The position numbers were made by a program, and so were the translations under genes. The notes beneath the pieces are model-generated. The model was not told the DNA's origin. It saw nothing but the letters and a program-made list of their open reading frames with translations, and made no database searches. A stretch of 64,000 nucleotides of DNA from Candidatus Omnitrophota bacterium (GTDB lineage: Bacteria > Omnitrophota > Gorgyraeia > B26-G9). How positions within the stretch are numbered: position 1 is the stretch's first letter; the number at the start of each line of letters is the position of its first letter. Below, piece after piece: positions 2,706-58,320 of this stretch. The DNA lies in contig JAZDHG010000031.1 in assembly GCA_043806135.1 (NCBI GenBank), forward strand, positions 1,110-65,109, given 5' to 3'.

Positions 2706-4304
2706 ATGTCTGCAGTAAATAAAGATCTATTCCTAGGTGTTGATATCGGCGCGGGTGCGCTTAAGATCGTTCTTTTGACTAAAGAAAAGAACGGTACGAT
2801 GCGTTTATTAAAGGCTGTTTGCCAGGAATATGAGGAAAGTGCCTTAGAACTTAATCCGGAAGACCAGCTAGCCAAAGCTGCCTATTTTCTTAAAAAATTC
2901 CTGCGTAATGAAAAAGTATTACGCAATGTTAAAGTAGGTATATCCATCGCCGGACAATCTGCTTTTGTTCGTTTAGTGAAAATCCCTGTTACAGCACCAC
3001 AAAAATTACGCCAAATTGTTCTTTATGAAACCCAGCAGCAGATTCCTTTTCCGATCAAGGATGTTGTTTGGGATTTTCAGATCTACGACCGCGATAAAAA
3101 ACAATTAAGCATTCTGCTGGCTGCAGTAAAAAAGGAATTGATAAATTCAATTCTTAATGTTGCGAGCGAGTGCTCACTTAATGTGGAATTTATAGATGTG
3201 AGTAATCTGGCGCTTTATAACAGCCTGCAGTATTTTTACCGGGATTTAAAGGAAACCCTGATAATTGATTGCGGAGCAAAAACCACAAATGTAATCGTTG
3301 CTAATGCCGGAAAGATCTGGACAAGAAGCCTGCCTTTAGGAGGAGAAGACATAAATGACGCGCTTATGCGCGTTTTTAAAATAGACCGCAGACTGGCCGA
3401 AAAGATAAAAAAGGAAAAGGGCCAGGTTGTGATGCTTTACCATGAAAAAGGAAGTTTGGAAGCAGAACAGGATCATAAGATTGCCGAGGCAATTACCGGT
3501 GTACTCACGGACTTGATAAATGAAATTGTTAAAACGCTTAATTTTTACAAATCACAAAATGTTTCAGAAGTAAAATTTCGCAAGGTTATTTTATGCGGAG
3601 GATTGAGCAAGATCAAAAATATTGATAAGTTTTTTGAGAGCAGCCTTTCTGTGAATGTTGAAAAGATAGACTACTTTAGCTTTTTAAAGTTTGATCCTAA
3701 GATAGACATGCAGGTAAATGAATTTATCGGTCCGGCTATCGGTCTTGCTTTGCGCGGCAACGGTATGGTGCCTTTGAATGTTAATCTTTTGCCTGCCGAA
3801 CACCTGCAATACAAACGGATCAAAAAGAGAATTCCCTATGTGCTGGGATCATTTGGAATAATTTTTCTGATGTTATTCGGTTTCTTTTATGTCTCGCTTA
3901 ATAAGTATTATTTGTTTAAAAGTTATCTGAATAAATTACAGATGAAAACAGACTTGTTCGAAAATAGTGAAAAAACTATTAATGAAGCGGATAATCATAT
4001 CCGAGCATACAGGGAAAAAATACAAATTATGCGTAAAGCGCTGTCGGCTAAGCATGTATTGGTTTTTATGCTTGAAGATATTGCGTTGGCTATGACGGAT
4101 AAAATATGGATAAAGAGCCTTAATTTTGACTTTGAAAATAACTCGATATCTCTGGAGGGAATCAGTACTGATGACCTGGACAGTATCGGAGAATTTCAGC
4201 AAAAATTACAGAAGAATACAATGATTAAAAACGTTAAAATCGAAACAGTCGGTAAAACCGGAAATAATACGATGAGTTTTTCCATAAGCATTTCCCTTAA
4301 TTAG
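2706..4304 (+). CDS. PilM-PilN fusion protein (actin-like ATPase PilM N-terminal, single-TM PilN-like C-terminal region)
   Basis: The N-terminus LGVDIGAGALKIVLL is an ASKHA/PilM-type motif. A transmembrane helix IPYVLGSFGIIFLMLFGFFYV sits around aa 375, followed by a ~140-aa periplasmic tail. The position between pilC and the pilO-like gene fits. Confidence 0.7.
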   Translation: MSAVNKDLFLGVDIGAGALKIVLLTKEKNGTMRLLKAVCQEYEESALELNPEDQLAKAAYFLKKFLRNEKVLRNVKVGISIAGQSAFVRLVKIPVTAPQKLRQIVLYETQQQIPFPIKDVVWDFQIYDRDKKQLSILLAAVKKELINSILNVASECSLNVEFIDVSNLALYNSLQYFYRDLKETLIIDCGAKTTNVIVANAGKIWTRSLPLGGEDINDALMRVFKIDRRLAEKIKKEKGQVVMLYHEKGSLEAEQDHKIAEAITGVLTDLINEIVKTLNFYKSQNVSEVKFRKVILCGGLSKIKNIDKFFESSLSVNVEKIDYFSFLKFDPKIDMQVNEFIGPAIGLALRGNGMVPLNVNLLPAEHLQYKRIKKRIPYVLGSFGIIFLMLFGFFYVSLNKYYLFKSYLNKLQMKTDLFENSEKTINEADNHIRAYREKIQIMRKALSAKHVLVFMLEDIALAMTDKIWIKSLNFDFENNSISLEGISTDDLDSIGEFQQKLQKNTMIKNVKIETVGKTGNNTMSFSISISLN

Positions 4305-5085: not shown

Positions 5086-5802
5086 ATGAAGGAAAAATAC
5101 GAAAATTTAGAAAAAGTTATATTTTTTGTTTTGCTATGCTTACTATTAGTTGCCATGCCTGTTTTACTTAAAAAAAGAGCCGCAAGCAATGATATCCTTG
5201 AAAAAAAGATTAAAAGTCTCTCGATAAATAATTCTGAGAGCGTCGAAACGGGAAATGAATACACTAATACCGAAAAATATTTAAGAGTCCAGGAGCAAGC
5301 AAACAGGACACTATCATCATTAACTTCAAAAAGAAATATTTTTTCTGAGCCTGTTTATAAGAAGAATGCCGAGATCGTGACTGGTGAGCATCAGGTTTTG
5401 CAGGTAAGTGAAATAGGTTTTAAACCTCTGGAGATTGAATACCGGGGTAAAGTTTTCTTTAAAGATGATAATGATATGGTAGCACAGGTAAATATTCTTA
5501 AGAAAAGCTATCTAGTAAAAAAGGGAACTAAATTTGCTTCTTACCAAGTCGATGAATTAAATGAAAAGTTTATTAAGTTGACGGATAAAAAAGGAGAAGT
5601 CATAAAAATAGAATACAGGCAGAAGGTTTACACAAATGAGCTGGTGGCAAAAATAAAAGAGCTTACCTCTGCCTATTCGGAAACAGTAAGTAAAAACGGC
5701 AGTTTTTTAGAGTATAAGGTGCTTGACATCGACGAAGATTCTGTGTTACTATCACATCAAGGACAGCATCTTAGATTAGAGAAAGGAATGGTATATAAAT
5801 GA
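5086..5802 (+). CDS. PilP-like protein (membrane-anchored, precedes secretin)
   Basis: The 238-aa product has an N-terminal hydrophobic anchor. Its stop overlaps the secretin gene start at 5799-5802, which suggests translational coupling. The call rests on context only. Confidence 0.35.
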   Translation: MKEKYENLEKVIFFVLLCLLLVAMPVLLKKRAASNDILEKKIKSLSINNSESVETGNEYTNTEKYLRVQEQANRTLSSLTSKRNIFSEPVYKKNAEIVTGEHQVLQVSEIGFKPLEIEYRGKVFFKDDNDMVAQVNILKKSYLVKKGTKFASYQVDELNEKFIKLTDKKGEVIKIEYRQKVYTNELVAKIKELTSAYSETVSKNGSFLEYKVLDIDEDSVLLSHQGQHLRLEKGMVYK

Positions 5803-14082: not shown

Positions 14083-14200
14083 AGTAATGGGAAAAGAGTA
14101 AACTTTTAAAAGCATAGTTGACTAATAGTTAATTGTTTGGTAAACTTTGAGGCTCGTAATTATATAGAAAATATTCCGCCAAAAGGCGGTCTCATAAAAT

Positions 14201-14287
14201 GCAGCGGGACAGGCGGGATTTAATTCGGCCATATTATTTACATCATTATATTCTGTAAATAATGGCCTCATTAAAGGAGGAGAAAAC
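14201..14287 (+). ncRNA. Conserved 5'-leader element, copy 1 (upstream of rpmE)
   Basis: The core GCGGGATTTAATTCG is followed by a 13-bp hairpin GGCCAT(AT)TATTTAC…GTAAATAATGGCC, then CTCATTAAAGGAGG and the ATG. The other copies are at 19325-19491 and 31820-31991. Confidence 0.45.
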
Positions 14288-19018: not shown

Positions 19019-19303
19019 GTGGCAGTTATTATCCGTTTAGCAAGACTTGGCGCAAAAAGGAAACCGCATCACAAAATTGTGGTAATTGAACAGCATAGAC
19101 CCAGAGATGGAAGGTTTATTGAAGAGATTGGATATTATGATCCTTCAAAAAATCCAGCTTTAGTAGAAGTTAAGGAAGACAGGGCAATGTATTGGATTAG
19201 TGTCGGGGCAAAACCAACACCTACAGTGAAAAGTATCTTTAAGAATAAAAAAATTCCGCTTAAAATAAAGCGAAGACAAGACTTAAAGAGCAAAGAGAAT
19301 TAA
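19019..19303 (+). CDS. rpsP: 30S ribosomal protein S16
   Basis: A GTG start follows the RBS GGAGGTGA, giving (M)AVIIRLARLGAKRKP… which is the S16 N-terminus. The ORF-track start at 18980 is too early. Confidence 0.85.
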   Translation: MAVIIRLARLGAKRKPHHKIVVIEQHRPRDGRFIEEIGYYDPSKNPALVEVKEDRAMYWISVGAKPTPTVKSIFKNKKIPLKIKRRQDLKSKEN

Positions 19304-19324
19304 GTCTGATATTGAGCTTTACCT

Positions 19325-19491
19325 CGCCCTCTGCGCGATGTGTAGAGGTTTAGATGGAGGAGGATGGTATTAATAGTAAAAAGTAGAACCTGGCCAGGGA
19401 ATAGATTAGAGAGCGGGATTCAATTCGCGTGTACAATTTAAAAAAAATATTATTTCATAAATTGTGCGCTCACGGGAAAAGGAGGTAAGTC
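19325..19491 (+). ncRNA. Conserved 5'-leader element, copy 2 (upstream of lipoprotein/trmD operon)
   Basis: It begins with CCCTCTGCGCGATGTGTAGAGG. The core CAGGGAATAGATTAGAGAGCGGGATTCAATTCGCG follows, then a hairpin GCGTGTACAATTT…AAATTGTGCGC, then GGAAAAGGAGG and the ATG. Confidence 0.45.
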
Positions 19492-20520: not shown

Positions 20521-20547
20521 TTAATGGTAGATCCCTTGCTTAAACAA

Positions 20548-20616
20548 AGGGGAAATTTTATTTTATAATTTCCCCTTAAGCTGCGGGATAAATTCTCCCG
20601 CCGAAGTGCGGCGGGA
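20548..20616 (+). terminator. Two stem-loops between trmD and rplS (AGGGGAAATT…AATTTCCCCT; TCCCGCCG-aagtg-CGGCGGGA)
   Basis: The inverted repeats are read directly. The second hairpin abuts the rplS RBS and may be an L19-leader-type structure. Confidence 0.4.
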
Positions 20617-20633
20617 TCATTAAGGAGGAAATA

Positions 20634-25798: not shown

Positions 25799-27358
25799 AT
25801 GAATACTTTAAATATAATAATTGGAGTAACAAGTGCGGTAATCTTTTTTATATTGGGATATTTTTTTAGACTTTTCGGCGCGGCAAAGAAAGTGCAAAGT
25901 GCCGAAGAAAAAGCAAAAATAATCCTGGAGGAAGCAGAACGTCAGGTAATGGCTAAAAAGAAGGAAGCAATCCTGGAAGCCAAAGATCTTCTTTATAAAA
26001 CAAGAATTGAATTTGAAAAAGAATCCCAAGGCAGGCGCCAGGAGTTACTAAACATTGAACGCAGGCTGATCAGCAGAGAGGAAAACCTGGACAGAAAGGT
26101 CGACCTTTTAGAGAAAAAGGAAAGAGAAGTAAGCAATAAGGCAAAGGTTTTAAGCGACAAGGAAAAAGAAAACCAGGAAAGGCAAAATGAGCTTAACCAG
26201 CTGATTTTGGAAGAAAAAGAGCGTCTGCAGAAAGTCTCCGGACTTAGCAGCGAAGAAGCGAAAAAAATACTCCTAAAACATATGGAGGGCGAGATTAGAT
26301 ATGATGCTAATCTCATGATAAAAAGAATTGAGCAGGAAGCAAAGGATGTTGCTGATAAAAAAGCAAAGCAGATCATCAGCTTGGCAATTCAGCGCTGCGC
26401 GGCTGAGCATACCGTAGAATCAACAGTTAGCGTAGTTAGTCTGCCCAGTGATGATATGAAGGGAAGAATTATCGGGCGCGAAGGACGTAATATAAGATCT
26501 CTTGAAGTAGCAACAGGCGTGGATATTATTATTGATGATACTCCTGAGGCAGTAACCCTTTCTGGATTTGATCCGATTAAAAGAGAGATTGCCAGACTCT
26601 CACTGGAGCGTCTTATTGCAAACGGACGGATACACCCGGCCCGTATAGAAGAAGTTGTCGGCAAAATAAAAAAGGAAATGGACCAGAGCATAAAAGAAGA
26701 AGGAGAAAAAGCTTCTTTTGATGTCGGCGTGCAGAGGATACACCCGGCGATAATCAAACTTTTAGGCCGTTTAAAATATAGAACAAGCTATGGCCAGAAT
26801 GTGCTGCAGCACTCTAAAGAAGCGGCATTTATAATGGGATTGCTTGCCGGACAGCTTGAGCTTGATATTACACTGGCAAAAAGAATCGGTTTTTTCCATG
26901 ATCTGGGAAAAGCTGTGGACCATGAGCTGGAGGGAACACATGCGGCGATAGGGGCTGAGCTGGCAAGAAAATACGGCGAGAATCAGACCGTAGTGGATGC
27001 AATTGCGGCGCATCATGATGAAGCTGAGTCTAACTCCATTTATGGAATACTTGTACAAGCAGCTGATGCAATAAGCGCAACAAGACCTGGTGCTCGCCGG
27101 GAAACCCTGGAGATATATATTAAACGCCTTGAAAAACTGGAAGCAATTGCCGATTCATTCAAAGGCGTGGATAAGGCTTTTGCTATACAGGCCGGCCGTG
27201 AGATCAGGGTTATTGTTAATCCGGATAAGGTGGGGGACCAGGAAGCAACGATCCTTGCCAGGGATATTACCAAGAAGATCGAGAATGAACTTGAATACCC
27301 AGGTCAGGTAAAAGTAACAGTGATCCGGGAAAAGCGGATTGTTGAATTCGCAAAATAG
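25799..27358 (+). CDS. rny: Ribonuclease Y
   Basis: The product has an N-terminal transmembrane helix and coiled coil. The KH domain is [25 protein letters not shown], and an HD domain follows. The length is 519 aa. Confidence 0.9.
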
Positions 27359-27411
27359 ATTAGCTGATTTGCTCATGAGCTCATGAGCTGATGAGCTGAG
27401 GTTTTAAGCTT

Positions 27412-28200
27412 ATGAAGATATTAATGATCGGTGACATAGTAGGAGAGCCGGGAAGACGTGCGGTAAGTAAAGGCATTGCTTCTTTAAGGGAGCGCGAGCA
27501 AATAGATTTTGTGATCGCCAATGCGGAAAACTCTGCGGCTGGCTCAGGCATAACCGCTAAAATTTACAATGAACTTATCAGCTGCGGGGTTGATGTGCTT
27601 ACCTCAGGAGATCATGTTTTTAAGAAAAAGGAAATAGTCGAGATATTGAATTTCCACGAAAGATTGATCAGGCCGGCTAATTACCCGGATGAGGTTCCGG
27701 GCAGCGGATACGTTATAGTCCGGGCTTCCAACGGAGAAAAAGTAGGCGTGATCAATGTAAACGGCAGAGTTTTTATGGAGCCGCTGGATTGTCCTTTCCG
27801 TAAAGCGCAAGAGCTTATAAAAAAAATCAAACAGGAAACGCAGATTATAATTGTTGATATCCATGCAGAGGCAACCAGTGAAAAAGTTGCCATGGGATGG
27901 TATCTTAACGGCCAGGTAAGCGCTGTATTGGGAACGCATACCCATGTGCAAACTGCAGATGAGCGCATACTTCCCGAAGCTGACCATACAGCCTACATTA
28001 CGGATGTGGGCATGAGCGGTCCGATTGATTCGGTAATAGGCAGAAAAATTGAGCAGATACTTCCGAGATTCTTAAATCATATTCCAATGAGATTTGAAGT
28101 TGCCGATAAAAATGTGCAGCTGCAGGGAGTCCTTATGGAAGTAGACCCAGTGAGCGGGAAAGCGAAGTCGATTAAAAGAGTTAAGGAGAGCATTACTTAG
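27412..28200 (+). CDS. YmdB-family metallophosphoesterase (2',3'-cAMP phosphodiesterase-like), partner of rny
   Basis: MKILMIGDIVGEPGRRAV matches the N-terminus of the TIGR00282 family. The gene is adjacent to rny. Confidence 0.8.
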   Translation: MKILMIGDIVGEPGRRAVSKGIASLREREQIDFVIANAENSAAGSGITAKIYNELISCGVDVLTSGDHVFKKKEIVEILNFHERLIRPANYPDEVPGSGYVIVRASNGEKVGVINVNGRVFMEPLDCPFRKAQELIKKIKQETQIIIVDIHAEATSEKVAMGWYLNGQVSAVLGTHTHVQTADERILPEADHTAYITDVGMSGPIDSVIGRKIEQILPRFLNHIPMRFEVADKNVQLQGVLMEVDPVSGKAKSIKRVKESIT

Positions 28201-30008: not shown

Positions 30009-31766
30009 ATGGCGACAAAAGGAAGGGTTATTGCTGTTGTCTCTAATCTAGTAACAATAGAAGTGGACGGACCAGTCAGTCAAAATGAGATCTGCTATAT
30101 AGATTTAGACGGTATAAAACTTAAGGCAGAGGTAATTAAAATTAACGGAAACCGTGCCTCTGCACAGGTCTTTGAAAGTACGCGGGGACTTCGTTTCGGC
30201 TGTAGTGCAGAATTTACAGAGCATATGCTTGAGGTTGAACTCGGGCCCGGCCTTCTTTCGAAAAAATATGACGGCCTGCAAAATGATCTCGAAGCAATGA
30301 ACGGGGTATTTTTAAAAAGAGGAGAATTAACAGCGAGATTTTCTTATGAACAAAAATGGGATTTTGTTCCGATAGCCAAAGTGAACGATAGGGTTAAAGC
30401 AGGAGATTTCCTCGGCGAGGTCAATGAAAACTGGGTTAAACATAAAATTATGGTGCCTTTTGCTCTGGAAGGTCTATGGCAGATAGAATCAATTGCCAAA
30501 AAAGGCTCATATACGGTAAAAGATACCATTGCCGTGTTAAAGGACAAAGACGGAAAGAAACAGAATGTCAGCATGATGCAGCGCTGGCCGGTAAAAGTAC
30601 CGGTTCGTGCCTATGCGGATAAGCCGATAGCTTATAAATTGCTTCAGACAGGGGTAAGGCTTATTGACACGCTAAACCCTATAGTAGAAGGAGGTACAGG
30701 ATTTATTCCCGGACCTTTTGGTTGCGGCAAAACAGTTTTGCAGCATATTATTGCCGCTAATGCCCAGGTTGATATGGTAATTATCTGCGCTTGCGGAGAA
30801 AGAGCGAATGAGGTAGTGGAGATATTTAAGGAATATCCGGAGCTTGAAGATCCGTTTACCGGACGCAAACTTATTGAACGCACGATTATTATTTGCAATA
30901 CTTCCAATATGCCCGTAGCTGCACGAGAGGCCTCTGTTTATACAGCAATGACAATCGCCGAATATTACCGTCAGATGGGTTTAAAGATATTACTGCTTGC
31001 CGATTCTACATCCCGTTGGGCTCAGGCACTCAGAGAGATGTCCAACCGAATGGAAGAATTGCCGGGCCCGGACGCTTTCCCCATGGATTTGACGGCGATT
31101 GTGGCTAATTTTTATTCAAGAGCAGGCCTGGTTGAGCTCTCTAACGGACAGACAGGGTCGGTAACCTTTATCGGAACGGTTTCTCCTGCGGGAGGGAATT
31201 TTAAAGAGCCGGTGACCGAATCCACCAAGAAAGTAGCCCGTTGTTTTTATGCTCTTTCCCAGAAGCGCGCCGATAGCAAAAGATATCCTTCGATAGATAC
31301 AATAGAAAGTTATTCAAAATACCTTGAATATAAAGAAGTGCAGGAATACATGGCGGAAAATCTGGAACCGCATTGGATAGAAAAGATTTTGTACATACGC
31401 GATGTCTTGCTCAGGGGAAAAGAGTCATATGACCGGATAAATATTTTGGGCGATGACAGCGTGCCTGTTGAATATCACGAGCGTTACTGGAAATCTGAAC
31501 TGATTGACTTTGGATTTCTGCAGCAGGATGCTTTTGACGAGGTTGATAAGGCAACGCCTATGGATAGGCAAAAATACATGATGGATATTATATACAATAT
31601 ATGCAAAGCAGACTTCAAATTTGAAAATTTTGACGGAGTCGCTGATTACTTTAAAAAAATCATAAATTTAATAAAACAGATGAACTATTCTAAATTTCAG
31701 GAAGAAGAATTTAAGAAGTTTGAAGACGAACTGCAAAGTGTCTTGATGGAACGAAAGGTCAATTGA
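30009..31766 (+). CDS. atpA: V/A-type ATPase catalytic subunit A
   Basis: The Walker A motif is GPFGCGKTV. The product is 585 aa and has the non-homologous region typical of A subunits. Confidence 0.95.
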   Translation: MATKGRVIAVVSNLVTIEVDGPVSQNEICYIDLDGIKLKAEVIKINGNRASAQVFESTRGLRFGCSAEFTEHMLEVELGPGLLSKKYDGLQNDLEAMNGVFLKRGELTARFSYEQKWDFVPIAKVNDRVKAGDFLGEVNENWVKHKIMVPFALEGLWQIESIAKKGSYTVKDTIAVLKDKDGKKQNVSMMQRWPVKVPVRAYADKPIAYKLLQTGVRLIDTLNPIVEGGTGFIPGPFGCGKTVLQHIIAANAQVDMVIICACGERANEVVEIFKEYPELEDPFTGRKLIERTIIICNTSNMPVAAREASVYTAMTIAEYYRQMGLKILLLADSTSRWAQALREMSNRMEELPGPDAFPMDLTAIVANFYSRAGLVELSNGQTGSVTFIGTVSPAGGNFKEPVTESTKKVARCFYALSQKRADSKRYPSIDTIESYSKYLEYKEVQEYMAENLEPHWIEKILYIRDVLLRGKESYDRINILGDDSVPVEYHERYWKSELIDFGFLQQDAFDEVDKATPMDRQKYMMDIIYNICKADFKFENFDGVADYFKKIINLIKQMNYSKFQEEEFKKFEDELQSVLMERKVN

Positions 31767-31819
31767 TGACTGAACTTATGGAGCGTAAGAGGACATAAGT
31801 TCACAGTCAGAGAATGACC

Positions 31820-31991
31820 CAGCCCTCTGTGCAGATAGAGGAAAGATATTTAAAAAAGAAAGATAATAGCAATAACTAGCCCTCACAGGGTTGATCAGGG
31901 AATAGCTTAGAGGGCTGGATTTAATTCGCGCATATCATTTAACTTCACAATGTTCGCTAAATAATGCGCTCATTAAAGAAAGGAAAATATC
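31820..31991 (+). ncRNA. Conserved 5'-leader element, copy 3 (in the 225-nt spacer between atpA and atpB)
   Basis: It begins with CCCTCTGTGCAGATAGAGG. The core CAGGGAATAGCTTAGAGGGCTGGATTTAATTCGCG follows, then a hairpin GCGCATATCATTTA…TAAATAATGCGC, then CTCATTAAAGAAAGG and the ATG. Confidence 0.45.
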
Positions 31992-33511: not shown

Positions 33512-33558
33512 AGTAACTTTTAGTAACCAATAGTAACTGTTTGTAACTGCTGGTAACC
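33512..33558 (+). promoter_or_regulatory. Five GTAAC pentamers at exact 10-bp period upstream of atpD
   Basis: Read directly: agtaacttttagtaaccaatagtaactgtttgtaactgctggtaacc. The 17-mer TAGTAACTGTTTGTAAC is shared with 58275. Confidence 0.5.
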
Positions 33559-33583
33559 GAAGAATAATAACTAGGGATGAAAC

Positions 33584-36584: not shown

Positions 36585-37301
36585 ATGTTCGAGCAGGGAA
36601 GAAAAAATACACAATATATCCGCAAGCAAATGAGCAGGGTGATCAAGGATTATTCCATGATCAATGAAGGCGACAGGATACTGATCGCTGTGTCCGGAGG
36701 AAAAGACAGTCTTTGTCTGCTGGAAATGCTTAGGGCCAGACAGAGTTTTTCACCGGTCAAATACGAAATTTCCCCGGTGCATTTTAATGAAGAAACAATA
36801 AATGCTCATATCCTTGAAAAATATCTTAAAAGCAACAATTATTCATACCGCATTGTAGGTCAGATAGAAAAACCAAGAAAAAAGCCGAGAAAAAGCCCCT
36901 GTTTTAACTGCAGCTGGGAACGCAGGAAAAGATTATTTCAAATAGCAGAGGAGCTAAAATGCAATAAGATCGCGCTTGCGCATCATATGGACGATATTAT
37001 TCAAACCACACTGCTGAATCTTTTTTTTATGGGTGAAATCAGCACGATGAGGCCTTATCAGGAGCTTTTCGGTGGGAAATGCCATATAATACGGCCGCTT
37101 GCTTATGTCCCGGAGAAGGCGCTTGCGGCATATTCTAAGGCAAGGAAATTTCCTAAAATGAAGGTTCAATGTCCCCATGGCAAAGACTCTGCGCGCAAGT
37201 TTATCTCGGATGAGATAAAAAGAATAGAAAAAAGATCTCCGGAGGTAAGGAAGAATGTATTCCGGTCATTGAAGAGGATCAGAAGCGATTATCTGCTTTA
37301 A
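36585..37301 (+). CDS. ttcA: tRNA 2-thiocytidine(32) synthetase TtcA-like PP-loop ATPase
   Basis: The PP-loop is LIAVSGGKDS, and there are two Cys pairs, CFNCSW and QCPHG. The ORF-track start at 36528 lies inside the upstream terminator, so 36585 (MFEQGRK…) was taken instead. Confidence 0.75.
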   Translation: MFEQGRKNTQYIRKQMSRVIKDYSMINEGDRILIAVSGGKDSLCLLEMLRARQSFSPVKYEISPVHFNEETINAHILEKYLKSNNYSYRIVGQIEKPRKKPRKSPCFNCSWERRKRLFQIAEELKCNKIALAHHMDDIIQTTLLNLFFMGEISTMRPYQELFGGKCHIIRPLAYVPEKALAAYSKARKFPKMKVQCPHGKDSARKFISDEIKRIEKRSPEVRKNVFRSLKRIRSDYLL

Positions 37302-37329: not shown

Positions 37330-37812
37330 ATGGAAATTGACAGCGTAAGAATAGAAATTCCAAAAGAGGCTAATGTTATAGTCGGCCAAAGCCATTTTAT
37401 TAAAACAGTGGAGGATATTTATGAGGCAATGGTGGGCTCTGTTCCGGGTATAAAATTCGGGGTCGGGTTTTGCGAGGCCTCAGGCGCATGCCTGGTACGC
37501 TCTGAAGGTAATGACCGGGAATTAAAGGAACATGCTGAAAAGACTGCTCTTGAAATTGCTTGCGGACATTGTTTTGTTCTGTTTATCAGAGATGCCTTTC
37601 CTATAAATGTGATGAGAGCGCTCAAAAATGTTCCGGAAATATGCCGTATTTTCTGTGCTACGGCTAATCCGCTTGAAATACTTACTGCTGAAACCGTCCA
37701 GGGCAGAGGGATTATCGGGGTCATTGACGGCTGCAAGCCCAAGGGGATAGAGAAGACAAGCGATATTAAATGGCGTAAAGATCTGCTGCGGACCATAAAA
37801 TATAAGCTTTGA
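37330..37812 (+). CDS. PF04008-like (so-called adenosine-specific kinase family) protein
   Basis: The 160-aa product carries the motifs HFIKTVEDIYEA…PGIKFG…CEASG…GHCFVLF…NPLE. These match that family from memory. Confidence 0.5.
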   Translation: MEIDSVRIEIPKEANVIVGQSHFIKTVEDIYEAMVGSVPGIKFGVGFCEASGACLVRSEGNDRELKEHAEKTALEIACGHCFVLFIRDAFPINVMRALKNVPEICRIFCATANPLEILTAETVQGRGIIGVIDGCKPKGIEKTSDIKWRKDLLRTIKYKL

Positions 37813-37879
37813 TACTTTTTAATATAATTCATATTTGACAATTTATTTTTTAGGTGTATTCTAATAATTGAGGATATAT

Positions 37880-38217
37880 TATGCATTGTCCAAAGTTTAT
37901 TGATTTTACAAGGGAATGCCAGTATAAAATAGGATTTCTGCCTTTAGACACTCGCCACTTTTGCTCTACCCGCAAATACAAAAAAGTGCCCGTTTTATAT
38001 AGCCATTCATAATGTCGGATATTTTTGCAAATATCTTAAACTCTGTCCAGCCTTTGAGCATTTTAAAACGGAAAATTTCGATAAATTTGTGCAAATAGCA
38101 AACGAATACTGCCTTTCTGAAAAGAACAATGTGCGTTGTTCAAGATTTAAGCTAAGAACTGCAGGGAAAAATCCGCCTGCGAAATTAATGCCGGATGGAA
38201 GTGTTTTGGAAAAATAA
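37880..38217 (+). pseudogene. Cys-rich small ORF(s) with three CP(K/F/A)F-type repeats, split by a frameshift at an A6 run (about 37965); intact length would be ~112 aa
   Basis: Frame 1 reads MHCPKFIDFTRECQY…KKVPVLYSHS*. Removing one A from the A6 run continues it as …KKCPFYIAIHNVGYFCKYLKLCPAFEHF…GSVLEK*. Confidence 0.3.
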
Positions 38218-38244
38218 ACAGTTAGTTAAATATAAAGGAGGGAT

Positions 38245-38358
38245 ATGATGAGTTGGATATTGTTCGGTCAGATCGTCTTGTTGATGGTAATATATTCTTT
38301 TATTAAACAACTGGTTAAGTGTATGCATGATACAAAATGTAAAATCTGTAAAAAATAA
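38245..38358 (+). CDS. Small membrane peptide with C-terminal Cys-rich tail (37 aa)
   Basis: An RBS GGAGGG sits 5 nt before the ATG. The product is MMSWILFGQIVLLMVIYSFIKQLVKCMHDTKCKICKK. Confidence 0.3.
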   Translation: MMSWILFGQIVLLMVIYSFIKQLVKCMHDTKCKICKK

Positions 38359-38389
38359 TTTAAAAGGGAAATCGAACGTCTTTCGCATC

Positions 38390-38600
38390 TTCCGCTAGCC
38401 CTTGTAAAACAGCTCAGAACTAGAACAAGTTCAGTCCAGAGCTGCATAGTACCGATCTATGATTTGGTTCTATGCAGGGCCGTGCTCAGATGTCTCACTC
38501 CCTAAGGGGAAACCCTTATGGCGTGAGCCACGTTGTGGCAACGCCACTCACGTGGTTTTCCCCTTCCCTATCTAAAGACGATAAGCTTTCTGAGTGCTTG
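38390..38600. ncRNA. GC-rich highly structured segment of unknown class (nested inverted repeats), adjacent to tRNA-Glu
   Basis: Three hairpins are visible. The first is CTGCATAG…CTATGCAG. The second is GGGGAAACCC…CGTGAGCCACG. The third is GTGGCAACGCCAC, nested within CACGTGGTTTTCCCC. No long ORF is present, and GC content is much higher than in flanking DNA. Confidence 0.3.
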
Positions 38601-38738
38601 GGATTAATTTGATAACGAATTTATATTCACACTATTCCATAAATTCTATCTCATTATTAATATTCCTCTTTTGGTTCGAACCCCAGGAAGAGCTATCAGA
38701 AAATAAAAAGGCCACTCTATCGAGTGGCTTTTTATAGT

Positions 38739-38816
38739 TGGTACCCCCAAGGGGATTCGAACCCCTGTTTTATGGCTGAGAACCACATGTCCTGGACCGG
38801 GCTAGACGATGAGGGC
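38739..38816 (-). tRNA. tRNA-Glu (anticodon CUC), with encoded CCA
   Basis: The reverse complement is GCCCTCATCGTCTAGCCCGGTCCAGGACATGTGGTTCTCAGCCATAAAACAGGGGTTCGAATCCCCTTGGGGGTACCA. This is collinear with E. coli tRNA-Glu (TCGTCTAG…CAGGAC…GGGGTTCGAATCCCC). The anticodon loop TTCTCAG gives CTC. Confidence 0.85.
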
Positions 38817-38958
38817 AAAAGTTTATGCTTTGGAAATTATATCATAATTTATTTTAAAGTCAATGCTTCTATGTCATTCTATGTAACATTTTGAGCAATG
38901 CTGAATATGTTACTGAATAGGTTACATTGGTTATAAATACTTCCTCCTAAGGCGAATA

Positions 38959-39072
38959 TTAAAAATTCCGCCACTCCCGCGCTGTGATCAATCCCTTGTC
39001 CGGCGTTATTCCAAAGATCGCAAATACAATTGCCAGCAGCAGGTCCATAATTCCGCTGACAATATTGACCAT
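38959..39072 (-). CDS. Possible 37-aa small membrane peptide
   Basis: An AGGA sits 6 nt before the ATG. The product is MVNIVSGIMDLLLAIVFAIFGITPDKGLITAREWRNF. No other support was found. Confidence 0.15.
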   Translation of the reverse strand: MVNIVSGIMDLLLAIVFAIFGITPDKGLITAREWRNF

Positions 39073-39179
39073 GGTGTCCTAACGAAATTACGCAAGAGAA
39101 TGCCTTTGTTTTAAAACAGTAAATAATTTTGGTATAGGCATATTGTTACTTTTATTAAAAAAATGGATTGCTGTTAATG

Positions 39180-39260
39180 CTCAGTAATTAGGTAACGTTT
39201 TTGGGTTATAGTTACGATGCCGTTTCGTTTTTCGGTTACGGTAATTGTAAAAACAAAAAT
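39180..39260 (+). promoter_or_regulatory. GTAA(C/T)/GTTAC-rich array upstream of the DUF2079 gene
   Basis: Read directly: cagtaattaggtaacgtttttgggttatagttacgatgccgtttcgtttttcggttacggtaattgtaaaa. Confidence 0.3.
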
Positions 39261-39475
39261 ATTTAATAAGTCCTCTGTTGACATGCTAAATATTTTTGAA
39301 GAACTTAACCATAGCCGAAAGACGATACGGGGTTCGTTACCTTTGCCGTTATCGAACTATTGAGCTAGTACACCTGGTTTTTTTAATATTTGGCAAAAGT
39401 TTCTTTATATTATAGTTTTAGACTTTTTACTTTTTCCTTCGTAATCTTTATCTTAGATGCTATAATACTGCTCAA

Positions 39476-41410
39476 ATGGTCAAAAATCATATGGAAAAGA
39501 CAGTAAAAAAAATAAACTATACCTATATTGTCTGGGCCTTAATATCTTTTTTTATATTAATTTTAAGTTTCATTAGTTTCCGCCGCTATTATTGTTTTGA
39601 TTATATCGATATGGATCTGGCGGCTTATAACCAGATCATTTGGAATATTGTCCACGGATCATGTTACAGTTCTATGCTTGGGGTGAATTTCCTGGGCCAT
39701 CATGCGCATTTTATCCTTTTTCTATTTGCACCGCTTTATTTTTTCTTTCAAACCCCGCTTTTTTTGCTTTTTATGCAGATTGTATTTCTCGCTATATGCG
39801 CATATCCGATCTTTATGATCGCCTCAAAAGAGCTTGATCAGGGATTGGCCCTATCTCTTGTAATTGCGTATCTGCTTTATCCGGCGATGGGCTATACAGC
39901 TCTTTATGAATTCCATGTGCCGGTTTTTGCAACTGCTTTTTTAACCTTTATGCTTTATTATTTCATAAAGCAGGATTTCAGGTTATTTGCTTTGTTTCTG
40001 AGCCTTAGTCTGCTTACTCAAGAGAATATTCCGCTGGTGATCATTCCTTTCGGCATATTCGCTTTTTTAAAGAAGAGGAGTATGAAATGGTGGCTTTTGC
40101 CTGCACTTGGAGGAAGCATCTGGTTTATAGCGGTTGTCGGTCAGGTAATGCCTTATTTTAATAAGAATACCGTTCAGTTCGTGACTATTTATGGTCATAT
40201 GGGGAATTCTTTACCTGAGATAATAGGTTTTATCATCAGCCGGCCTTTGACGGTGATTAAAATGATGCTGAGCGCTCAGAAAGTAAAATTCCTTTTCCAG
40301 CTGTTTGCACCGCTTTGTTTTTTTCCTTTGTTAGATACCCATATATTGATCAGCGGATTACTCTTTGTCCAGCATTTACTTTCCTCAAGGGCGCCGGAAT
40401 ATATGATTGAGTACCATTATGACGCGGAAATACTGCCGTTTATTTTTGTTTCTACTGTTTACGGCATTAAGAGATTTATGAATTGGCCGCTAATAAAACG
40501 CTATCTTCGTCCTTCTGTCATTTGCGCGCTGATACTTGCTGTGAGCATTACCTGTGCTGTCAGTTTTGGGCCTTTCATTGAAATCGCTGTTAATAAATAT
40601 AAGACAACAAAGGATGTTTGGGATCTGCAAAAAGAGCGTTTTCTTTCCATGATCCCAGATGATGCGAGCATCGTGGCAACATTTGAGTTTTTGCCCATGT
40701 TATCACAAAGAAAACAACTTTATTCCTTTCATCATGTGGTTCACGGATTTTATACGCTTTCCCGGGTGCCTTACCGCCTGCCGCAGGGTGTTGAGTATGC
40801 ATTGCTTGATGTTAATGATCCTATTGGTGTTAATGTTTTTTACAAAAGAGGAAGATCTGAATCCAATATCGCTGATTTTTTAAATTTAAATAATTGGGGC
40901 ATAGTAGAAATGCTGGATAATATTGTATTATTAAAAAATGAATATAAGAGCGATAAGAAATTCTTCCGGATACTGAAAGAGCCGCCGGTTATTGCGCAGG
41001 GATTAAATGCGCTTATAGGGACCGATATATCCTTTCTCGGATATGATATCGATAAAGAAATACAGATCAAAGGCGGCAGGAGCATTGGCGTAAAATTCTT
41101 CTGGAAAACATTAAAAAAAATAGAAACTGATTACAGAATGATCATAGAGATAAATGATGCAAAAGACAAGCTGCGTTATCAGACAATAAGGCCGTTGTGT
41201 TATCGCATATTGCCTTCTTATATGTGGGCGCAAAACGTAGTTATAGAGGAAAATTACAGGTTGTTTATACCTGAGGATTTAGAAAAAGAAAAATTCACGG
41301 TCAGTATGAAAATAATTGACGCAGGCACAGAGGATGTTGTTCCGATATTATTGAAAAATAATAGAGGACAGCCGATCAGCCTGGAAACACTGGTGATTTT
41401 AAAGAAATAA
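39476..41410 (+). CDS. DUF2079-like polytopic membrane protein (putative GT-C type glycosyltransferase)
   Basis: The N-terminal ~350 aa has more than 10 transmembrane helices. The motif YCFDYIDMDLAAYNQIIWNI…FLGHHAHFILFLFAPLYF is typical of the family. The C-terminal half is soluble. Confidence 0.55.
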   Translation: MVKNHMEKTVKKINYTYIVWALISFFILILSFISFRRYYCFDYIDMDLAAYNQIIWNIVHGSCYSSMLGVNFLGHHAHFILFLFAPLYFFFQTPLFLLFMQIVFLAICAYPIFMIASKELDQGLALSLVIAYLLYPAMGYTALYEFHVPVFATAFLTFMLYYFIKQDFRLFALFLSLSLLTQENIPLVIIPFGIFAFLKKRSMKWWLLPALGGSIWFIAVVGQVMPYFNKNTVQFVTIYGHMGNSLPEIIGFIISRPLTVIKMMLSAQKVKFLFQLFAPLCFFPLLDTHILISGLLFVQHLLSSRAPEYMIEYHYDAEILPFIFVSTVYGIKRFMNWPLIKRYLRPSVICALILAVSITCAVSFGPFIEIAVNKYKTTKDVWDLQKERFLSMIPDDASIVATFEFLPMLSQRKQLYSFHHVVHGFYTLSRVPYRLPQGVEYALLDVNDPIGVNVFYKRGRSESNIADFLNLNNWGIVEMLDNIVLLKNEYKSDKKFFRILKEPPVIAQGLNALIGTDISFLGYDIDKEIQIKGGRSIGVKFFWKTLKKIETDYRMIIEINDAKDKLRYQTIRPLCYRILPSYMWAQNVVIEENYRLFIPEDLEKEKFTVSMKIIDAGTEDVVPILLKNNRGQPISLETLVILKK

Positions 41411-44825: not shown

Positions 44826-44943
44826 TCGCTAACCGGCTTTAAAAACGGGCTATTCTTTTTTAGGGTGGAAGAATTTTTGTAAGATAGTAAGAATGAAGAG
44901 GCTAGATAGAAACAATAATGGACAACGAATCTGTGTAATCCTG

Positions 44944-44994
44944 TTTTAATCTGTGAAATCAGGTTCTTGCTGTTATTCTAAACAAGAAAGAACC
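44944..44994 (+). repeat. 52-nt dispersed hairpin repeat, copy A (upstream of purB)
   Basis: Read directly: ttttaatctgtgaaatcaggttcttgctgttattctaaacaagaaagaacc. The stem is GGTTCTT/AAGAACC with a variable loop. The flank cgaatctgtgtaatcctg at 44927-44943 is also shared with copy B. Confidence 0.6.
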
Positions 44995-45090
44995 AAAAAA
45001 CCCGCCCAAAACCGGATTATAAAAGGTTTGACGTAACCTGAATAATTTGATATTATTAAGTATTCCTGAACTATATAGAGAGGTGGAACT

Positions 45091-54562: not shown

Positions 54563-54583
54563 TAGTATATCAGTGTAAGCTGG

Positions 54584-54635
54584 TTTTTAATCGGTGAAAT
54601 CAGGTTCTTTTATTCCATTTAAACAAGAAAGAACC
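54584..54635 (+). repeat. 52-nt dispersed hairpin repeat, copy B (immediately upstream of purE RBS)
   Basis: Read directly: tttttaatcggtgaaatcaggttcttttattccatttaaacaagaaagaacc. The upstream flank cagtgtaagctgg at 54571 is also shared with copy A. Confidence 0.6.
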
Positions 54636-54662
54636 TTAAAGTTAAGGAGGATATCAGAAATT

Positions 54663-55153: not shown

Positions 55154-56209
55154 ATGAAAGATACAAAGATATTCAAGATAAACTCTGAAAATCCCGACAT
55201 AGATAAGATAAAAGAGGCGGCATTAATATTAAAAACAGGCGGGCTGGTGGCTTTTCCGACAGAAACAGTTTATGGATTGGCTGCTTTGCCTTATGATATA
55301 GCTGTGGAAAAACTGCGTTATATAAAAAATAGATATGAAGTGAAGCAATTTTCCTTTTGTATCCACAGCATTGAACAGGCCGAACATCTTGCAGGGTATA
55401 TCTCACCCTTTGCCTATAAGCTTATGAATAAATTCTGGCCGGGACCGCTGACATTGGTATTGGATAACCGGCAGGGAGAAACTGTGGGATTGAGAATCCC
55501 GGATCATCCGGTAGCACTGCTATTTTTAAAAGAAATCGGCGAGCCTGTTTTTGCTCCGTCTGCCAATTTTGCCGGGGAAAAAGCCCCGGTTAATGCTCAG
55601 GAGGTATTAAAGGCTTTAGATAAAAAAATTGATGCTTTGATTGATTCAGGAGAGTCAAAGGTTAAGGTCTCTTCTACGGTATGTAAGGTTACTGATGATA
55701 GTTTTGAGATACTCAGGCCGGGGGCGATAACTAAGGCCATGATCGAGCAGGTTTTAAAAATGAAAGAAGTGCTTTTTGTCTGTACGGGAAACAGCTGCCG
55801 CAGCGCAATGGCTGAGGGACTGATGAAAAAAATAGTTAAAGGCTCTGTAAATATCCATATCAGCTCAGCCGGGGTGGCCGCATATGAGGGAATGCCGGCC
55901 TCACAGGAAGCTATTCTTGTTATGCAAAAATTAGGCGTAGATATATCCGAGCATAAAGCAAGGAGAGTAACTGATGAGATGCTGAAGCAGGCGGATTTTA
56001 TCCTGGTTATGGAGCAGGGGCATACACAGTATATCTTGAAGCAACGAAGCGAATTAAGCAAAAGGGTTTTTCTTTTAAAAGAGTTCTCTGTAGATCAGTC
56101 CGGAGGGCTGTCGATCGGGGATCCGATAGGCATGAGTATTGGTTTTTATGAAAAGGTGGCTGATGAATTGCAGAAATCAATAGAAGGGCTGGTGGCAAAA
56201 ATAAAATGA
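55154..56209 (+). CDS. Fusion: threonylcarbamoyl-AMP synthase TsaC/YrdC domain + low-molecular-weight phosphotyrosine/arginine phosphatase (YwlE-like)
   Basis: The N-terminal YrdC fold shows LKTGGLVAFPTETVYGLAA. The C-terminal LMW-PTP P-loop is VLFVCTGNSCRSAMAEG. Confidence 0.8.
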   Translation: MKDTKIFKINSENPDIDKIKEAALILKTGGLVAFPTETVYGLAALPYDIAVEKLRYIKNRYEVKQFSFCIHSIEQAEHLAGYISPFAYKLMNKFWPGPLTLVLDNRQGETVGLRIPDHPVALLFLKEIGEPVFAPSANFAGEKAPVNAQEVLKALDKKIDALIDSGESKVKVSSTVCKVTDDSFEILRPGAITKAMIEQVLKMKEVLFVCTGNSCRSAMAEGLMKKIVKGSVNIHISSAGVAAYEGMPASQEAILVMQKLGVDISEHKARRVTDEMLKQADFILVMEQGHTQYILKQRSELSKRVFLLKEFSVDQSGGLSIGDPIGMSIGFYEKVADELQKSIEGLVAKIK

Positions 56210-56634
56210 AAATAGCTATGGGAAGTGATCATAGAGGGATTGACCTTAAAAAGTCTTTGATTTTATATCTTCAAAAAAACGGACATCAGGTTGAAGATTT
56301 CGGCGCCTATAGCACGGAATCCTGTGACTATCCTCAAATCGCTTTAAAAGTCGCTCGCGCGGTAGCGAAAAAAAAAGTGGAAAGGGGAATACTTATCTGC
56401 GGCAGCGGGCTGGGTATGACCATGGCCGCCGGCACGGTAAGAGGAGTAAGAGCGGCAAACTGCCTTAACCTTTCACTCGCTCGGTTTTCGCGTGAACATA
56501 ATGATGCGAATGTTTTGGTTATCGGGGCAATGTATGTGGGAGGAAATTTGGCTAAAAGGATAGCAGGCAAATGGTTGAAAACCTCTTTTTTAGGCGGCAG
56601 ACATGAACGCCGAGTAAAAATGTTTTCTAAGTGA
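56206..56634 (+). CDS. rpiB: Ribose-5-phosphate isomerase B
   Basis: MKIAMGSDHRGIDLK…ICGSGLGMTMAAG is the RpiB/LacAB family signature. Confidence 0.85.
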   Translation: MKIAMGSDHRGIDLKKSLILYLQKNGHQVEDFGAYSTESCDYPQIALKVARAVAKKKVERGILICGSGLGMTMAAGTVRGVRAANCLNLSLARFSREHNDANVLVIGAMYVGGNLAKRIAGKWLKTSFLGGRHERRVKMFSK

Positions 56635-56638
56635 GATT

Positions 56639-56876
56639 ACAACTTACGGAACGAAGTGAACGTAAGTTGTAAAATCGAACTTATCCCGAACCTGATGAGT
56701 AAAAATTTAGTATAAATTTTTGCGAAAGTTTTAGAGGTTCGGGGAAAGTGAATATAAAGTTATAATACGGAACGAAGTGAACGTAAGTTGTAAAATCGAA
56801 CTTATCCCGAACCTATGAGTAAAAAATAAAAAAATTTTTACGAAAGTATTAAAAGGGCGGGAATAACGGAGCAGGA
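56639..56876 (+). repeat. Tandem direct repeat, 2 x ~119 nt, upstream of glyA; each unit has internal stem-loops and a CUGAUGAG-stem-CGAAA-like core (intact only in unit 1)
   Basis: Unit 1 spans 56639-56757 and unit 2 spans 56758-56876. They share the ~58-nt core tacggaacgaagtgaacgtaagttgtaaaatcgaacttatcccgaacct(g)atgagtaaaaa…cgaaag. Confidence 0.6.
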
Positions 56877-56963
56877 AATCTTGTAATAAATTTGGATATG
56901 GCCTAAAGGCCTATAATTTATGCCGGGCATAAATTATCTACTCATTGAGGAGGAAAATAATAA

Positions 56964-58202
56964 ATGAGTGAGTTAAAAAAAACTGATATTGCAATATATA
57001 ACGCGATTAAAAAAGAATTAAAAAGACAGAGAGAGCATATAGAATTAATTGCCAGTGAGAATTTTACCTCACGCGCGGTTATGGAAGCGCAGAGTTCTGT
57101 TCTTACCAATAAATATGCCGAAGGATATCCGGGAGCCCGCTGGTACGGAGGCTGTGAACATGTTGACGTTGCCGAACAATTGGCGATCGATAGGGCAAAG
57201 GAGATATTTCAGGCCGAGCACGCAAATGTTCAGCCGCATTCAGGAGCTCAGGCGAATATGGCCGTGTTTATGAGCTGTCTTAAAGCAGGGGATAAAGTGC
57301 TTGCCTTGGATCTTGCCTGCGGAGGACATCTGTCGCATGGCCATCCTAAAAATTTTTCCGGTTTATTTTATGACGTAAAATTTTACCAGGTTAATCGCCG
57401 GACTGAACAGCTTGATTATGATGAAATTTCCTCTTTAGCAAAGAAACACAAACCCCGGCTTATTCTTGCCGGCGCTTCTGCGTATCCGAGATTTATCGAT
57501 TTTAAAAAATTCCGTAAAATTTGCGATAGCGTCGGAGCATATCTGATGGTCGATATGGCGCACATTGCCGGGCTTGTTGCCGCAGGCGTGCATCCCTCTC
57601 CTGTGCCTTATGCTGAGTTTGTAACGACCACAACGCACAAAACACTGCGCGGACCAAGAGGAGGCTTGATACTTTGCCGCAAGGAATTTGCCAAGAGTAT
57701 TGATTTAAATGTTTTTCCGGGTACTCAAGGCGGACCGCTTATGCATGTTATTGCTGCTAAGGCGGTGGCTTTGAAAGAAGCTTTAATGCCTGGTTTCAAA
57801 AAGTACCAGATACAAGTAGCTTCGAACGCAAAAGAACTGGCTGGTGCATTAAAGAAAAGAGGATTCCGTATTGTCGCCGGTGGCACGGATACGCATTTAA
57901 TGCTTGTCGACTTAACAAACAGAGATATCACAGGAAAAGAAGCGCAAATAGCTTTAGGTGAAGTGAATGTTACGATCAATAAAAATCTTATTCCTTTTGA
58001 TAAAAAATCGCCGTTTTTGACCAGCGGTATAAGATTGGGAACTCCGGCTGTGACTACAAGAGGAATGAAGGAAAAACAAATGCATGTTATTGCTGACATT
58101 ATTGATCAAATTCTACAAAAAGATCAGACTATTACAAAGGAAAAACAGCGTGAAATGAAAAGCCACGTGCGGCTTTTAACGCAAAAGTTTCCCTTATATT
58201 GA
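56964..58202 (+). CDS. glyA: Serine hydroxymethyltransferase
   Basis: The PLP-Lys region is [15 protein letters not shown]. The product is 412 aa. Confidence 0.95.
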
Positions 58203-58207
58203 AAAAC

Positions 58208-58307: not shown

Positions 58308-58320
58308 GGATTAAAATATT

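Follow-up and report, generated by a model that had tools for sequence, protein, structure and literature searches.

Stable hairpins that stabilise a message at its 5′ end or serve processing between cistrons are known from the ompA and aprE leaders, the RNase III sites of phage T7 and the malE-malF REP, and REPs have been reported to stabilise the mRNA segments upstream of them. MIRUs, the interspersed repetitive units of mycobacteria, are reportedly tandem direct repeats that carry small in-frame open reading frames (ORFs). The REPINs and BIMEs of Enterobacteria and Pseudomonas consist of two inverted palindromic units around a spacer that varies in sequence but always forms a hairpin (PMC3337134, PMC3116915), while ERIC and Correia elements, which are co-transcribed and resemble miniature transposable elements with inverted repeats (MITEs), affect mRNA stability or processing through RNase E or RNase III and sometimes supply promoters (PMC2229807, PMC2649163, PMC10969869). 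Here we analyse the segment at 14201–14287 of a 64,000-nt stretch of a Candidatus Omnitrophota contig (JAZDHG010000031.1), which is called the window as a whole. The segment is an R module, one part of a modular repeat family that occupies intergenic spaces in Candidatus Omnitrophota and folds into hairpins. The window's own assignment to this group is borne out by proteins that match those of a metagenome-assembled genome at NCBI exactly. The Omnitrophota are uncultured and, to our knowledge, nothing is known of how they control gene expression; a literature search found no paper tying them to intergenic repeats.

A preliminary description of the window had proposed three + strand copies of a leader element, upstream of rpmE, of a lipoprotein/trmD operon and of atpB. 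In a window search the core, GGATTYAATTCG, was located on the + strand at 14216, 19416 and 31917. The 24-nt pattern GGATTYAATTCG-N8-ATTT has exactly three window matches, copies 1–3, which can be aligned from the core to the ATG and were also recovered as repeat families D5, D8 and D9; pattern match and alignment thus bear out all three copies. The 13-mer alone, allowing up to two mismatches, gave six window matches against 4.7 expected, which is not above chance, so that the significance of the copies rests on their longer common architecture. In each case the core begins 72–76 nt upstream of a start codon (14288, 19492 and 31992). Copy 1 (14211–14284, +) is a solitary module between rho and rpmE-prfA, copy 2 (19411–19486, +) lies between rpsP and a 109-aa ORF followed by trmD and rplS, and copy 3 (31912–31986, +) lies between the V-ATPase A gene (atpA) and those for B and D, immediately before the atpB ATG. 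All three stand on the sense strand directly 5′ of a Shine-Dalgarno sequence (SD), as originally described. Searched with R1, a covariance model (CM) built here and run over the window with all filters off, the copies score 81 (E=1e-15; alignments A3, A4 and A6), 55.5 (with Pfam context) and 77.3 bits, respectively.

The structure of R was examined in two sets of copies: 29 copies for the drawn structure, and 77 distinct high-scoring copies found with R1 in other Omnitrophota genomes and metagenomes (alignment A6, which was also fitted to the R1 model). The hairpin consists of a basal helix TTYAAT/ATTRAA, a 2×2 internal loop TC/TC, 6 bp, a 2-nt bulge and 8 bp. In copy 1 these elements are TTTAAT/ATTAAA, the TC/TC loop, GGCCAT/ATGGCC, the bulge and TTATTTAC/GTAAATAA, followed by GGAGG and the rpmE ATG at 14288. 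Among the 29 copies 94% of the cells are paired and seven pairs show double changes (0/500 shuffles), while controls with slid pairing partners are 29–44% paired. Among the 77 copies the 20 pairs are again 94% paired, with ten pairs double-changed in 198 cells (0/500 shuffles) and slid controls at 34–42%. The compensatory changes reported for the three window copies are thus real. RNAalifold independently gives the same structure with nine compensatory pairs, in a register that shifts the bulge to a conserved TA, so that the next Y pairs with R (UA 21, CG 7).

One feature of the hairpin had been misplaced. It was said to start about 6 nt past the core, whereas the G of TTCG is already the first paired base, and TTYAAT within the core pairs with ATTRAA just before the SD. 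The basal Y-R pair of this helix (UA 45, CG 17), which was not fixed by the search patterns, joins a core base to the base 3 nt before the SD, and the last helix of R ends 0–1 nt from the SD. The R consensus of about 75 nt is GGATTYAATTCG-stem-AATTTAC-loop-GTAAATT-stem-CTCATTRAA, then directly GGAGG and ATG; conservation across many species is strong at its foot, at the stem top and in part of the loop. That no known leader motif had been recognised agrees with Rfam 15: the one window match at the gathering score is a tRNA and, at E<=10, composite 3 (the larger unit around copy 3) returns only chance-level eukaryotic families. A tRNA-like or T-box reading of the core was rejected, as ARAGORN and Rfam were both empty there. 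GCTCATTAA is similar to the NusB/NusE boxA, GCTCTTTAA, a tentative point in favour of a dedicated regulatory RNA; the bases of GCTCATTAA are paired in the model.

The family extends well beyond the window. A scan of one representative genome per species with the pattern GGATTYAATTCG-N8-ATTT-N14-24-AAAT returned chance matches together with about 27 true copies, nearly all of them in metagenome-assembled genomes (MAGs) of Candidatus Omnitrophota and often several per MAG. A stricter pattern matched 45 metagenome contigs and, in IMG/VR, no viral contig, on which ground a phage origin was rejected. Searches with R1 gave 116 distinct matches in 72 sequences overall, almost all between ORFs. The further copies in related genomes that the preliminary description had itself named as a test are therefore found by both covariance-model and pattern searches.

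Many R modules are accompanied by an inverted partner, which we call L. In the window, R1 matches the minus strand at 56619–56691 (50.8 bits) and 31750–31825 (26 bits). Most of the copies seen at other loci had a second, inverted copy 0–100 nt upstream and, when counted, 30 of 78 R modules have an inverted module no more than 300 nt upstream. The order of the full unit is L on the upstream stop codon, at least one variable hairpin, R, SD and ATG. The L consensus of about 70 nt is T[TC]AA[AG]TGA[AG]G-stem-ACTTAYG-loop-CRTAAGT-stem-CTGAATTTATCC, and its hairpin of 18 pairs is 93% paired, with 14 pairs double-changed in 28 copies (0/500 shuffles). Judged by sequence, L is the DNA mirror image of R and yet a distinct subtype. 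The outer ends of the unit are inverted (T[TC]AA[AG]TGA.. and ..TCAYTRAA), L and R fold separately rather than pairing into a single long hairpin, and identity between L and R is 63% within a locus and 61% between loci. The spacer hairpins between them differ in sequence at every locus, and each folds. Copies 2 and 3 were reported to have upstream pieces in common (CCCTCTG..AGAGG and CAGGGAATAGNTTAGAGRGC), and these are indeed 83% identical over 47 nt (D8); they are the variable central part of the larger composite element. Other arrangements include solitary modules, tandem R-R, an R-like module followed by L, and mosaics; some R-type modules follow a terminator that belongs to the opposite strand, and inverted copies without a gene behind them are frequent.

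Several other readings of the unit were tried and rejected. A long-range L-R duplex or four-way cloverleaf does not fit, because copies with TTCAAT have the partner G in the downstream ATTGAA and not in L, and because L and R of the same locus are not specifically alike. The small peptide that L could encode as a leader (MKPKLMEQSEHK..) varies in length and frame: ORFs from the conserved ATG or GTG of L run from 3 to >20 codons, with internal stops, the conserved TGA lies 43–50 nt away, and the reverse complement of this sequence is found in the R loop. The L loop is a tandem GA/GA without the 3-nt bulge of a K-turn, and an integron attC origin was set aside since the flanks are housekeeping genes in conserved synteny.

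The modules are placed precisely with respect to translation signals. An ORF start lies within −8 to +25 nt of the end of 61 of the 78 R-type matches, and 54 of these 61 have an SD; in the lower-scoring, inverted (L-type) matches, the stop codon of the upstream sense-strand gene mostly falls in the first bases. Of 59 proteins encoded downstream of R, 18 are GroEL (2), GroES (3), RpoB, HU, ACP (2), ribosomal proteins L25, L31 (2), L19, S16 and S7, an EF-G-like GTPase, IF-3 and HPF, and others include MetK, Pgk, GlyA, IlvC, IlvE, PurF, V-ATPase B and several lipoproteins. By our own estimate the gene classes of these 18 make up a few percent of a bacterial genome, and against that figure the bias toward highly expressed genes looks strong. 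Two R-type modules, at 5535–5608 (−) of locus L044 and at 3660–3739 (+) of L137, directly adjoin tRNA genes; one ends 0–3 nt before the mature 5′ end of the tRNA and the other lies against the 3′ end of an opposite-strand tRNA.

Comparison of orthologous junctions showed that modules come and go. The atpA/atpB junction was compared in six relatives. In five of them (AtpB 82–87% identical) the genes overlap (ATGA; ..GTATCATGA..) or are separated by 11 nt, with no element, and the sixth (93% identical) has a remodelled version of 132 nt containing R only, compared with a gap of 225 nt in the window. The gap was correctly attributed to copy 3 interrupting the V-ATPase operon and, because five relatives lack the element, copy 3 is on this sequence comparison a lineage-specific insertion. 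The ancestral sequence GAAAGGAAAGTATCATGA (atpA end, SD and ATG) reappears to the right of the R module of copy 3 as GAAAGGAAAATATCATGA, so the SD at atpB was not brought by the element; to the left of the L module, a recoded version, GAACGAAAGGTCAATTGA, survives in atpA. The insertion has an imperfect segment of about 11 nt on either side (GAACGAAAGGT and GAAAGGAAAAT, where the empty site has GAAAGGAAAGT once), although this is one compared site, at which selection on the atpA C-terminus and the atpB SD could give the same picture. At rho/rpmE, the order coaE-rho-rpmE-prfA-prmC-aroA is conserved. The rpmE copy of R is present in the window and in relatives L173 (PrfA 86% identical, 50 bits) and L175 (74%, 31 bits), whose stems are nearly the same and both unlike that of the window, and is absent from L174 (PrfA 85%), L176 (71%) and L177 (68%). 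An exact 49-nt repeat at 56645 and 56766 is a local duplication. Copies within one genome are about 60–86% identical, those of the same MAG differing in both stems and loops, and the window copies are 72–86% identical over their best stretches. From one related genome to another, modules are thus acquired, dropped or reshaped, through insertion and local duplication. A dedicated leader of rpmE, trmD or atpB, as the element had been presented, is hard to reconcile with an atpB insertion missing from five relatives and an rpmE copy missing from three of five.

In all, about ten modules occupy six spacers of the window. Composite 2 (19257–19486) begins with a degenerate L (19257–19329, +), which has a weak inverted CM score of 12.3 bits and aligns with the L family (A5); its hairpin GACTTAA..TTAAGTC overlaps the 3′ end of rpsP, whose stop is at 19303. 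The central variable segment (19330–19410, +; D8) contains the CCCTCTG..AGAGG hairpin and CAGGGAATAGATTAGAGAGC, and the basal helix of copy 2 that follows is degraded (TTCAAT versus CGGGAA) before the lipoprotein-like ORF at 19492. In composite 3 (31750–31986), L (31750–31825, +; inverted CM 26 bits, E=0.0018; fold −25 kcal/mol, z=−3.4) starts on the atpA TGA (31764–31766, within TCAATTGATGAC) and forms the hairpin GACTGAACTTATG..CATAAGTTCACAGTC; the variable segment (31826–31911, +; D8) carries AGCCCTCTG..AGAGG and TAGCCCTC..GAGGGCT. Composite 4 (56619–56958) has an L module (56619–56691, +; inverted CM 50.8 bits, E=5.6e-9; fold z=−3.9) that starts at the stop of rpiB (56206–56634) and forms ATTACAACTTACG..CGTAAGTTGTAAAAT. 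A partial second L (56755–56814, +; weak CM match 56755–56800) contains the 49-nt exact duplicate of 56645–56693, with a period of 121 nt (D7), and a degenerate R (56895–56958, +; 15.3 bits) precedes the glyA ATG at 56964, with a small hairpin, GGCCTAAAGGCC, in place of its 5′ arm and then TATAATTTATG..CATAAATTAT and CTCATTGAGGAGG, much like the remodelling in L167.

The remaining weaker + strand matches of R1, beside that at 56895, begin at 20581 and 38595. The former (20581–20632, 19.9 bits) belongs to a variant composite in the trmD-rplS spacer (20521–20633, +), with the order GATCCCTTGCTTAA-hairpin-TTAAGCTGCGGGATAAATTC, a GC-rich hairpin, TCATTAAGGAGG and the rplS ATG; its upstream piece recurs in L083 and L173. 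The latter (38595–38667, +; 21.5 bits, E=0.018) is a weak, orphan R-like module with no gene behind it, in a noncoding stretch before tRNA-Glu. At 4543–4878 of L083, an S30AE/HPF gene has no stop before L and reads through it, so that the C-terminus gains ..MKPKLEEGNELESVD; from the reading frame, the repeat can apparently be translated as a protein tail. Translated repeat tails are known for Rickettsia palindromic elements.

The position of the modules relative to transcription signals is informative in part. A sigma-70-like promoter (TTGACT-17-TAAACT, with TG before the second hexamer) at 14118–14146 (+) is conserved in the relative L173 and lies about 65 nt upstream of copy 1, which places the copy inside an rpmE 5′ untranslated region (UTR) of about 135 nt. 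Copy 1 is thus downstream of a promoter rather than upstream, as the term leader had implied. The spacers of copies 2 and 3 have no promoter-like site, copies 1–3 have no + strand promoter-like site inside them, and none of the three spacers has a + strand terminator-like site. The P1 hairpin with ATTTAATT was rejected as an intrinsic terminator, given the lack of a sense-strand terminator-like site and the A+T-rich composition of many P1 stems. Copies 2 and 3 are predicted to fold with the SD unpaired and with no conserved alternative pairing that masks it, which speaks against the thermosensor that had been suggested and against a riboswitch-type switch.

The Omnitrophota family resembles several described systems without coinciding with any of them. 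With REP, BIME and REPIN elements it has in common imperfect palindromic modules repeated in extragenic, transcribed space (about ten modules in the window, and the 116 matches in 72 sequences), mosaic clusters, compensatory changes in the stems and long persistence in a lineage, and the inverted doublet with a variable hairpin spacer is found at 30 of 78 R modules. A near-identical doublet folded into one long hairpin is not found (63% identity against a 61% background), the modules are about 70 nt rather than the 20–40 nt of REP, and unlike REP they have a fixed L/R polarity (stop codon and SD) and are enriched 5′ of highly expressed genes. Unlike the REPIN-RAYT system, no RAYT gene is known for the family, transposases having been sought among the window ORFs. 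Intergenic units of 100–200 nt with inverted ends and strain insertion polymorphism recall ERIC/IRU and Correia (CREE/NEMIS) elements, as would their co-transcription with flanking genes as long stem-loops. In contrast to these, no TA target duplication or defined terminal inverted repeat is apparent, the copies are far more divergent, the modules fold independently rather than as one end-to-end stem, and the boundaries are a stop codon and an SD. Presence and absence at orthologous sites (atpA/atpB and rho/rpmE) is what a MITE would show, while the near-identical copies expected within a genome are not seen (window copies 72–86% identical). As in MIRU, intergenic repeats in operons overlap the upstream stop and downstream start regions with their ends, and L nearly always has an ATG or GTG after or overlapping the stop (TAAATG, TAAGTG, TGATG); the Omnitrophota units differ in being hairpins whose small ORF is not conserved in length or frame. 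Finally, the stabiliser hairpins are alike in placing a stable hairpin 5′ of an accessible SD or 3′ of a stop, at highly expressed genes and between cistrons, but those are single and gene-specific, while this family is reused at dozens of unrelated genes in many species. To us it is a new family within a familiar class of repeats, one not previously described from this phylum.

Going beyond the family, its anatomy, placement and gain and loss, we infer that the hairpins of the modules are co-transcribed at gene boundaries, where they protect mRNA segments or insulate them, a function to which we give about an even chance. L, spacer and R would be transcribed together with the neighbouring genes. 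L would form a stable hairpin that caps the upstream message right after its stop codon against 3′-5′ exonucleases, and R one that heads the downstream message before an unpaired SD, against 5′-end-dependent decay. If the variable middle were then cleaved, or transcription began there, two hairpin-capped segments would result, and R would also shield the ribosome-binding site from upstream sequence. Protective or insulating hairpins of this kind would be kept preferentially at highly expressed genes. An RNA role is favoured by the L/R polarity, the placing of copy 1 within a 5′ UTR, the absence of promoters and sense-strand terminators from the spacers of copies 2 and 3, the free SD and the expression bias. 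Genes for RNase Y and YmdB lie side by side in the window (25799–28200), as in Firmicutes, which suggests that mRNA decay of the RNase Y type operates in this Omnitrophota genome and fits a 5′-end-dependent decay that such hairpins could block. A bolder form of this idea, which we think rather unlikely, is that L-spacer-R is a domesticated operon-punctuation cassette across the Omnitrophota, a sequence-defined means of segmenting mRNA that insertion has spread through the phylum. The foot, the bulged A and the stem top would then be recognised by a conserved nuclease or RNA-binding factor that cuts the variable middle; the upstream mRNA would keep its L cap, and the R-headed downstream mRNA with its free SD would set the high, uncoupled expression of translation, chaperone and energy genes.

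A number of observations weigh against the protective function. Co-transcription, cleavage and stabilisation are alike inferred; the element is dispensable at orthologous sites; and the expression bias could mirror where insertions happen or are tolerated rather than any benefit. The strict patterns used for finding loci make several alignment columns invariant by construction. R carries a well-conserved −10-like TAYNAT (A at the second position in 69 of 77 copies; variants TATAAT, TACAAT and TATGAT). Counts of wobble pairs do not single out the sense strand: R has 20 G-U against 12 A-C, eight of the U-G becoming C-G in the RNAalifold register, and L has 16 against 9. Where L has GA/GA as its conserved internal loop, R has the complementary TC/TC; recognition as DNA, or shared ancestry, explains this more simply than a single RNA motif common to both. 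Both the counts and the complementary loops favour a DNA-level constraint. Of the original claim that the covariation marks a selected RNA structure, the selected and covarying hairpin stands, and the assignment to RNA receives no clear signal from G-U versus A-C.

A repeat selected only as DNA would explain much of this. Such a selfish or neutral element, of the REP/RAYT or MITE type, would keep its hairpins for a transposase or another DNA enzyme acting on single-stranded DNA and would have no RNA function, its gene-boundary location reflecting target preference and tolerance only. It would account for modules in both orientations and in mosaics, for the presence/absence polymorphism and fast remodelling at orthologous sites, for the imperfect direct duplication of about 11 nt around copy 3 and for the missing strand bias in wobble pairs; the GA/GA and TC/TC loops fit recognition as DNA, and REPIN spacers are likewise variable in sequence and always hairpins (PMC3337134). 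The fixed polarity of the modules toward translation, L at stops and R at the SD, and their strong enrichment before highly expressed genes are not what such an element predicts. Nor does the identity of only about 60–86% within genomes indicate a recent burst, comparing L with R within a locus gives no higher similarity than comparing them across loci (0.63 versus 0.61), the rpmE copy persists across lineages with just 74% PrfA identity, and no transposase domain was found among the ORFs of the roughly 55 window genes, a weak test confined to the window. On balance we regard a purely DNA-level repeat as possible but doubtful.

The TAYNAT motif raises the question of a promoter cassette, in which it would be the −10, GGATTYAATTCG a possible factor or sigma contact, and the hairpin loop the site of initiation, with R driving the downstream gene strongly. 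Its conservation, the position of R before highly expressed genes and a tRNA, and the promoters known to be made by Correia elements (PMC2649163) are all in keeping with this. However, an acceptable −35 at 16–18 nt is present in only 11–15 of 78 R modules, for which reason a canonical promoter in R was rejected; no + strand promoter was detected in copies 1–3; copy 1 already has a canonical promoter 65 nt upstream; and bases past the putative start covary with the 5′ strand of each of the three helix segments, which is not required of a promoter. We consider promoter activity as the role of R improbable. A dedicated, lineage-specific regulatory RNA, whether thermosensor, riboswitch-like sensor or RNA-binding-protein site, that switches downstream translation would agree with a covarying hairpin whose last helix ends 0–1 nt from the SD and whose foot, stem top and part of the loop are strongly conserved in many species. 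We give it little chance, since the downstream genes have no common physiology besides high expression, the SD is free in the folds of copies 2 and 3 and no masking alternative is conserved, inverted copies without a gene behind them occur frequently, orthologous genes can do without the element and Rfam has no match. The specific cis-regulatory leader of the preliminary description also fails to explain why the same type of module occurs inverted after stops, in tandem and in mosaics, beside tRNAs and before dozens of unrelated genes.

Other features of the window were noted in passing. A leader of about 75 nt (ATCnGTGTAAnC..TTTTAATCnGTGAAATCAGGTTCTT-loop-AAACAAGAAAGAACC) is common to purB (45091) and purE (44924–44999 and 54565–54640, +; a partial copy at 37004–37042), has no Rfam match at E<=1, and may be a regulatory element for purine genes; at purE, AAGGAGG and an ATG near 54650 come next, so the listed GTG start at 54594 is probably wrong. 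Direct-repeat arrays of (A)GTAAC or GGTAAC with a period of about 10–11 nt occur upstream of atpD (33512–33569), upstream of the dCMP-deaminase/nrdR genes (58195–58318) and scattered in a long noncoding stretch (38890–39260), and from their sequence they look like clustered sites for a DNA-binding protein. The region 37812–39476, 1.66 kb with little coding potential and a short Cys-rich ORF region, includes a G+C-rich, strongly self-complementary segment (38380–38590), the orphan R-like module (38595–38667), a two-way terminator-like hairpin (38708–38735) and tRNA-Glu(CTC) on the minus strand (38739–38816). It has no Rfam family apart from the tRNA and could hold an undescribed small RNA. Two database proteins, P0001 and P0002 (642 and 635 aa), outscore the exact 458-aa AtpB match and are probably upstream-extended or fused atpB calls in close relatives.

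This work provides a covariance model of a repeat family and describes its anatomy; the family marks the boundaries of the most highly expressed genes of Omnitrophota. It accounts for odd gaps in otherwise tight operons, such as that between atpA and atpB, and it carries a warning for annotation, since the repeats give rise to spurious small ORFs and to C-terminal extensions such as that of the L083 HPF. The family is also usable as a lineage marker. If its modules do stabilise or insulate mRNA, they would provide a natural, portable 5′-UTR/3′-UTR cassette, and the family would be a dispersed repeat domesticated with a fixed polarity toward translation signals.

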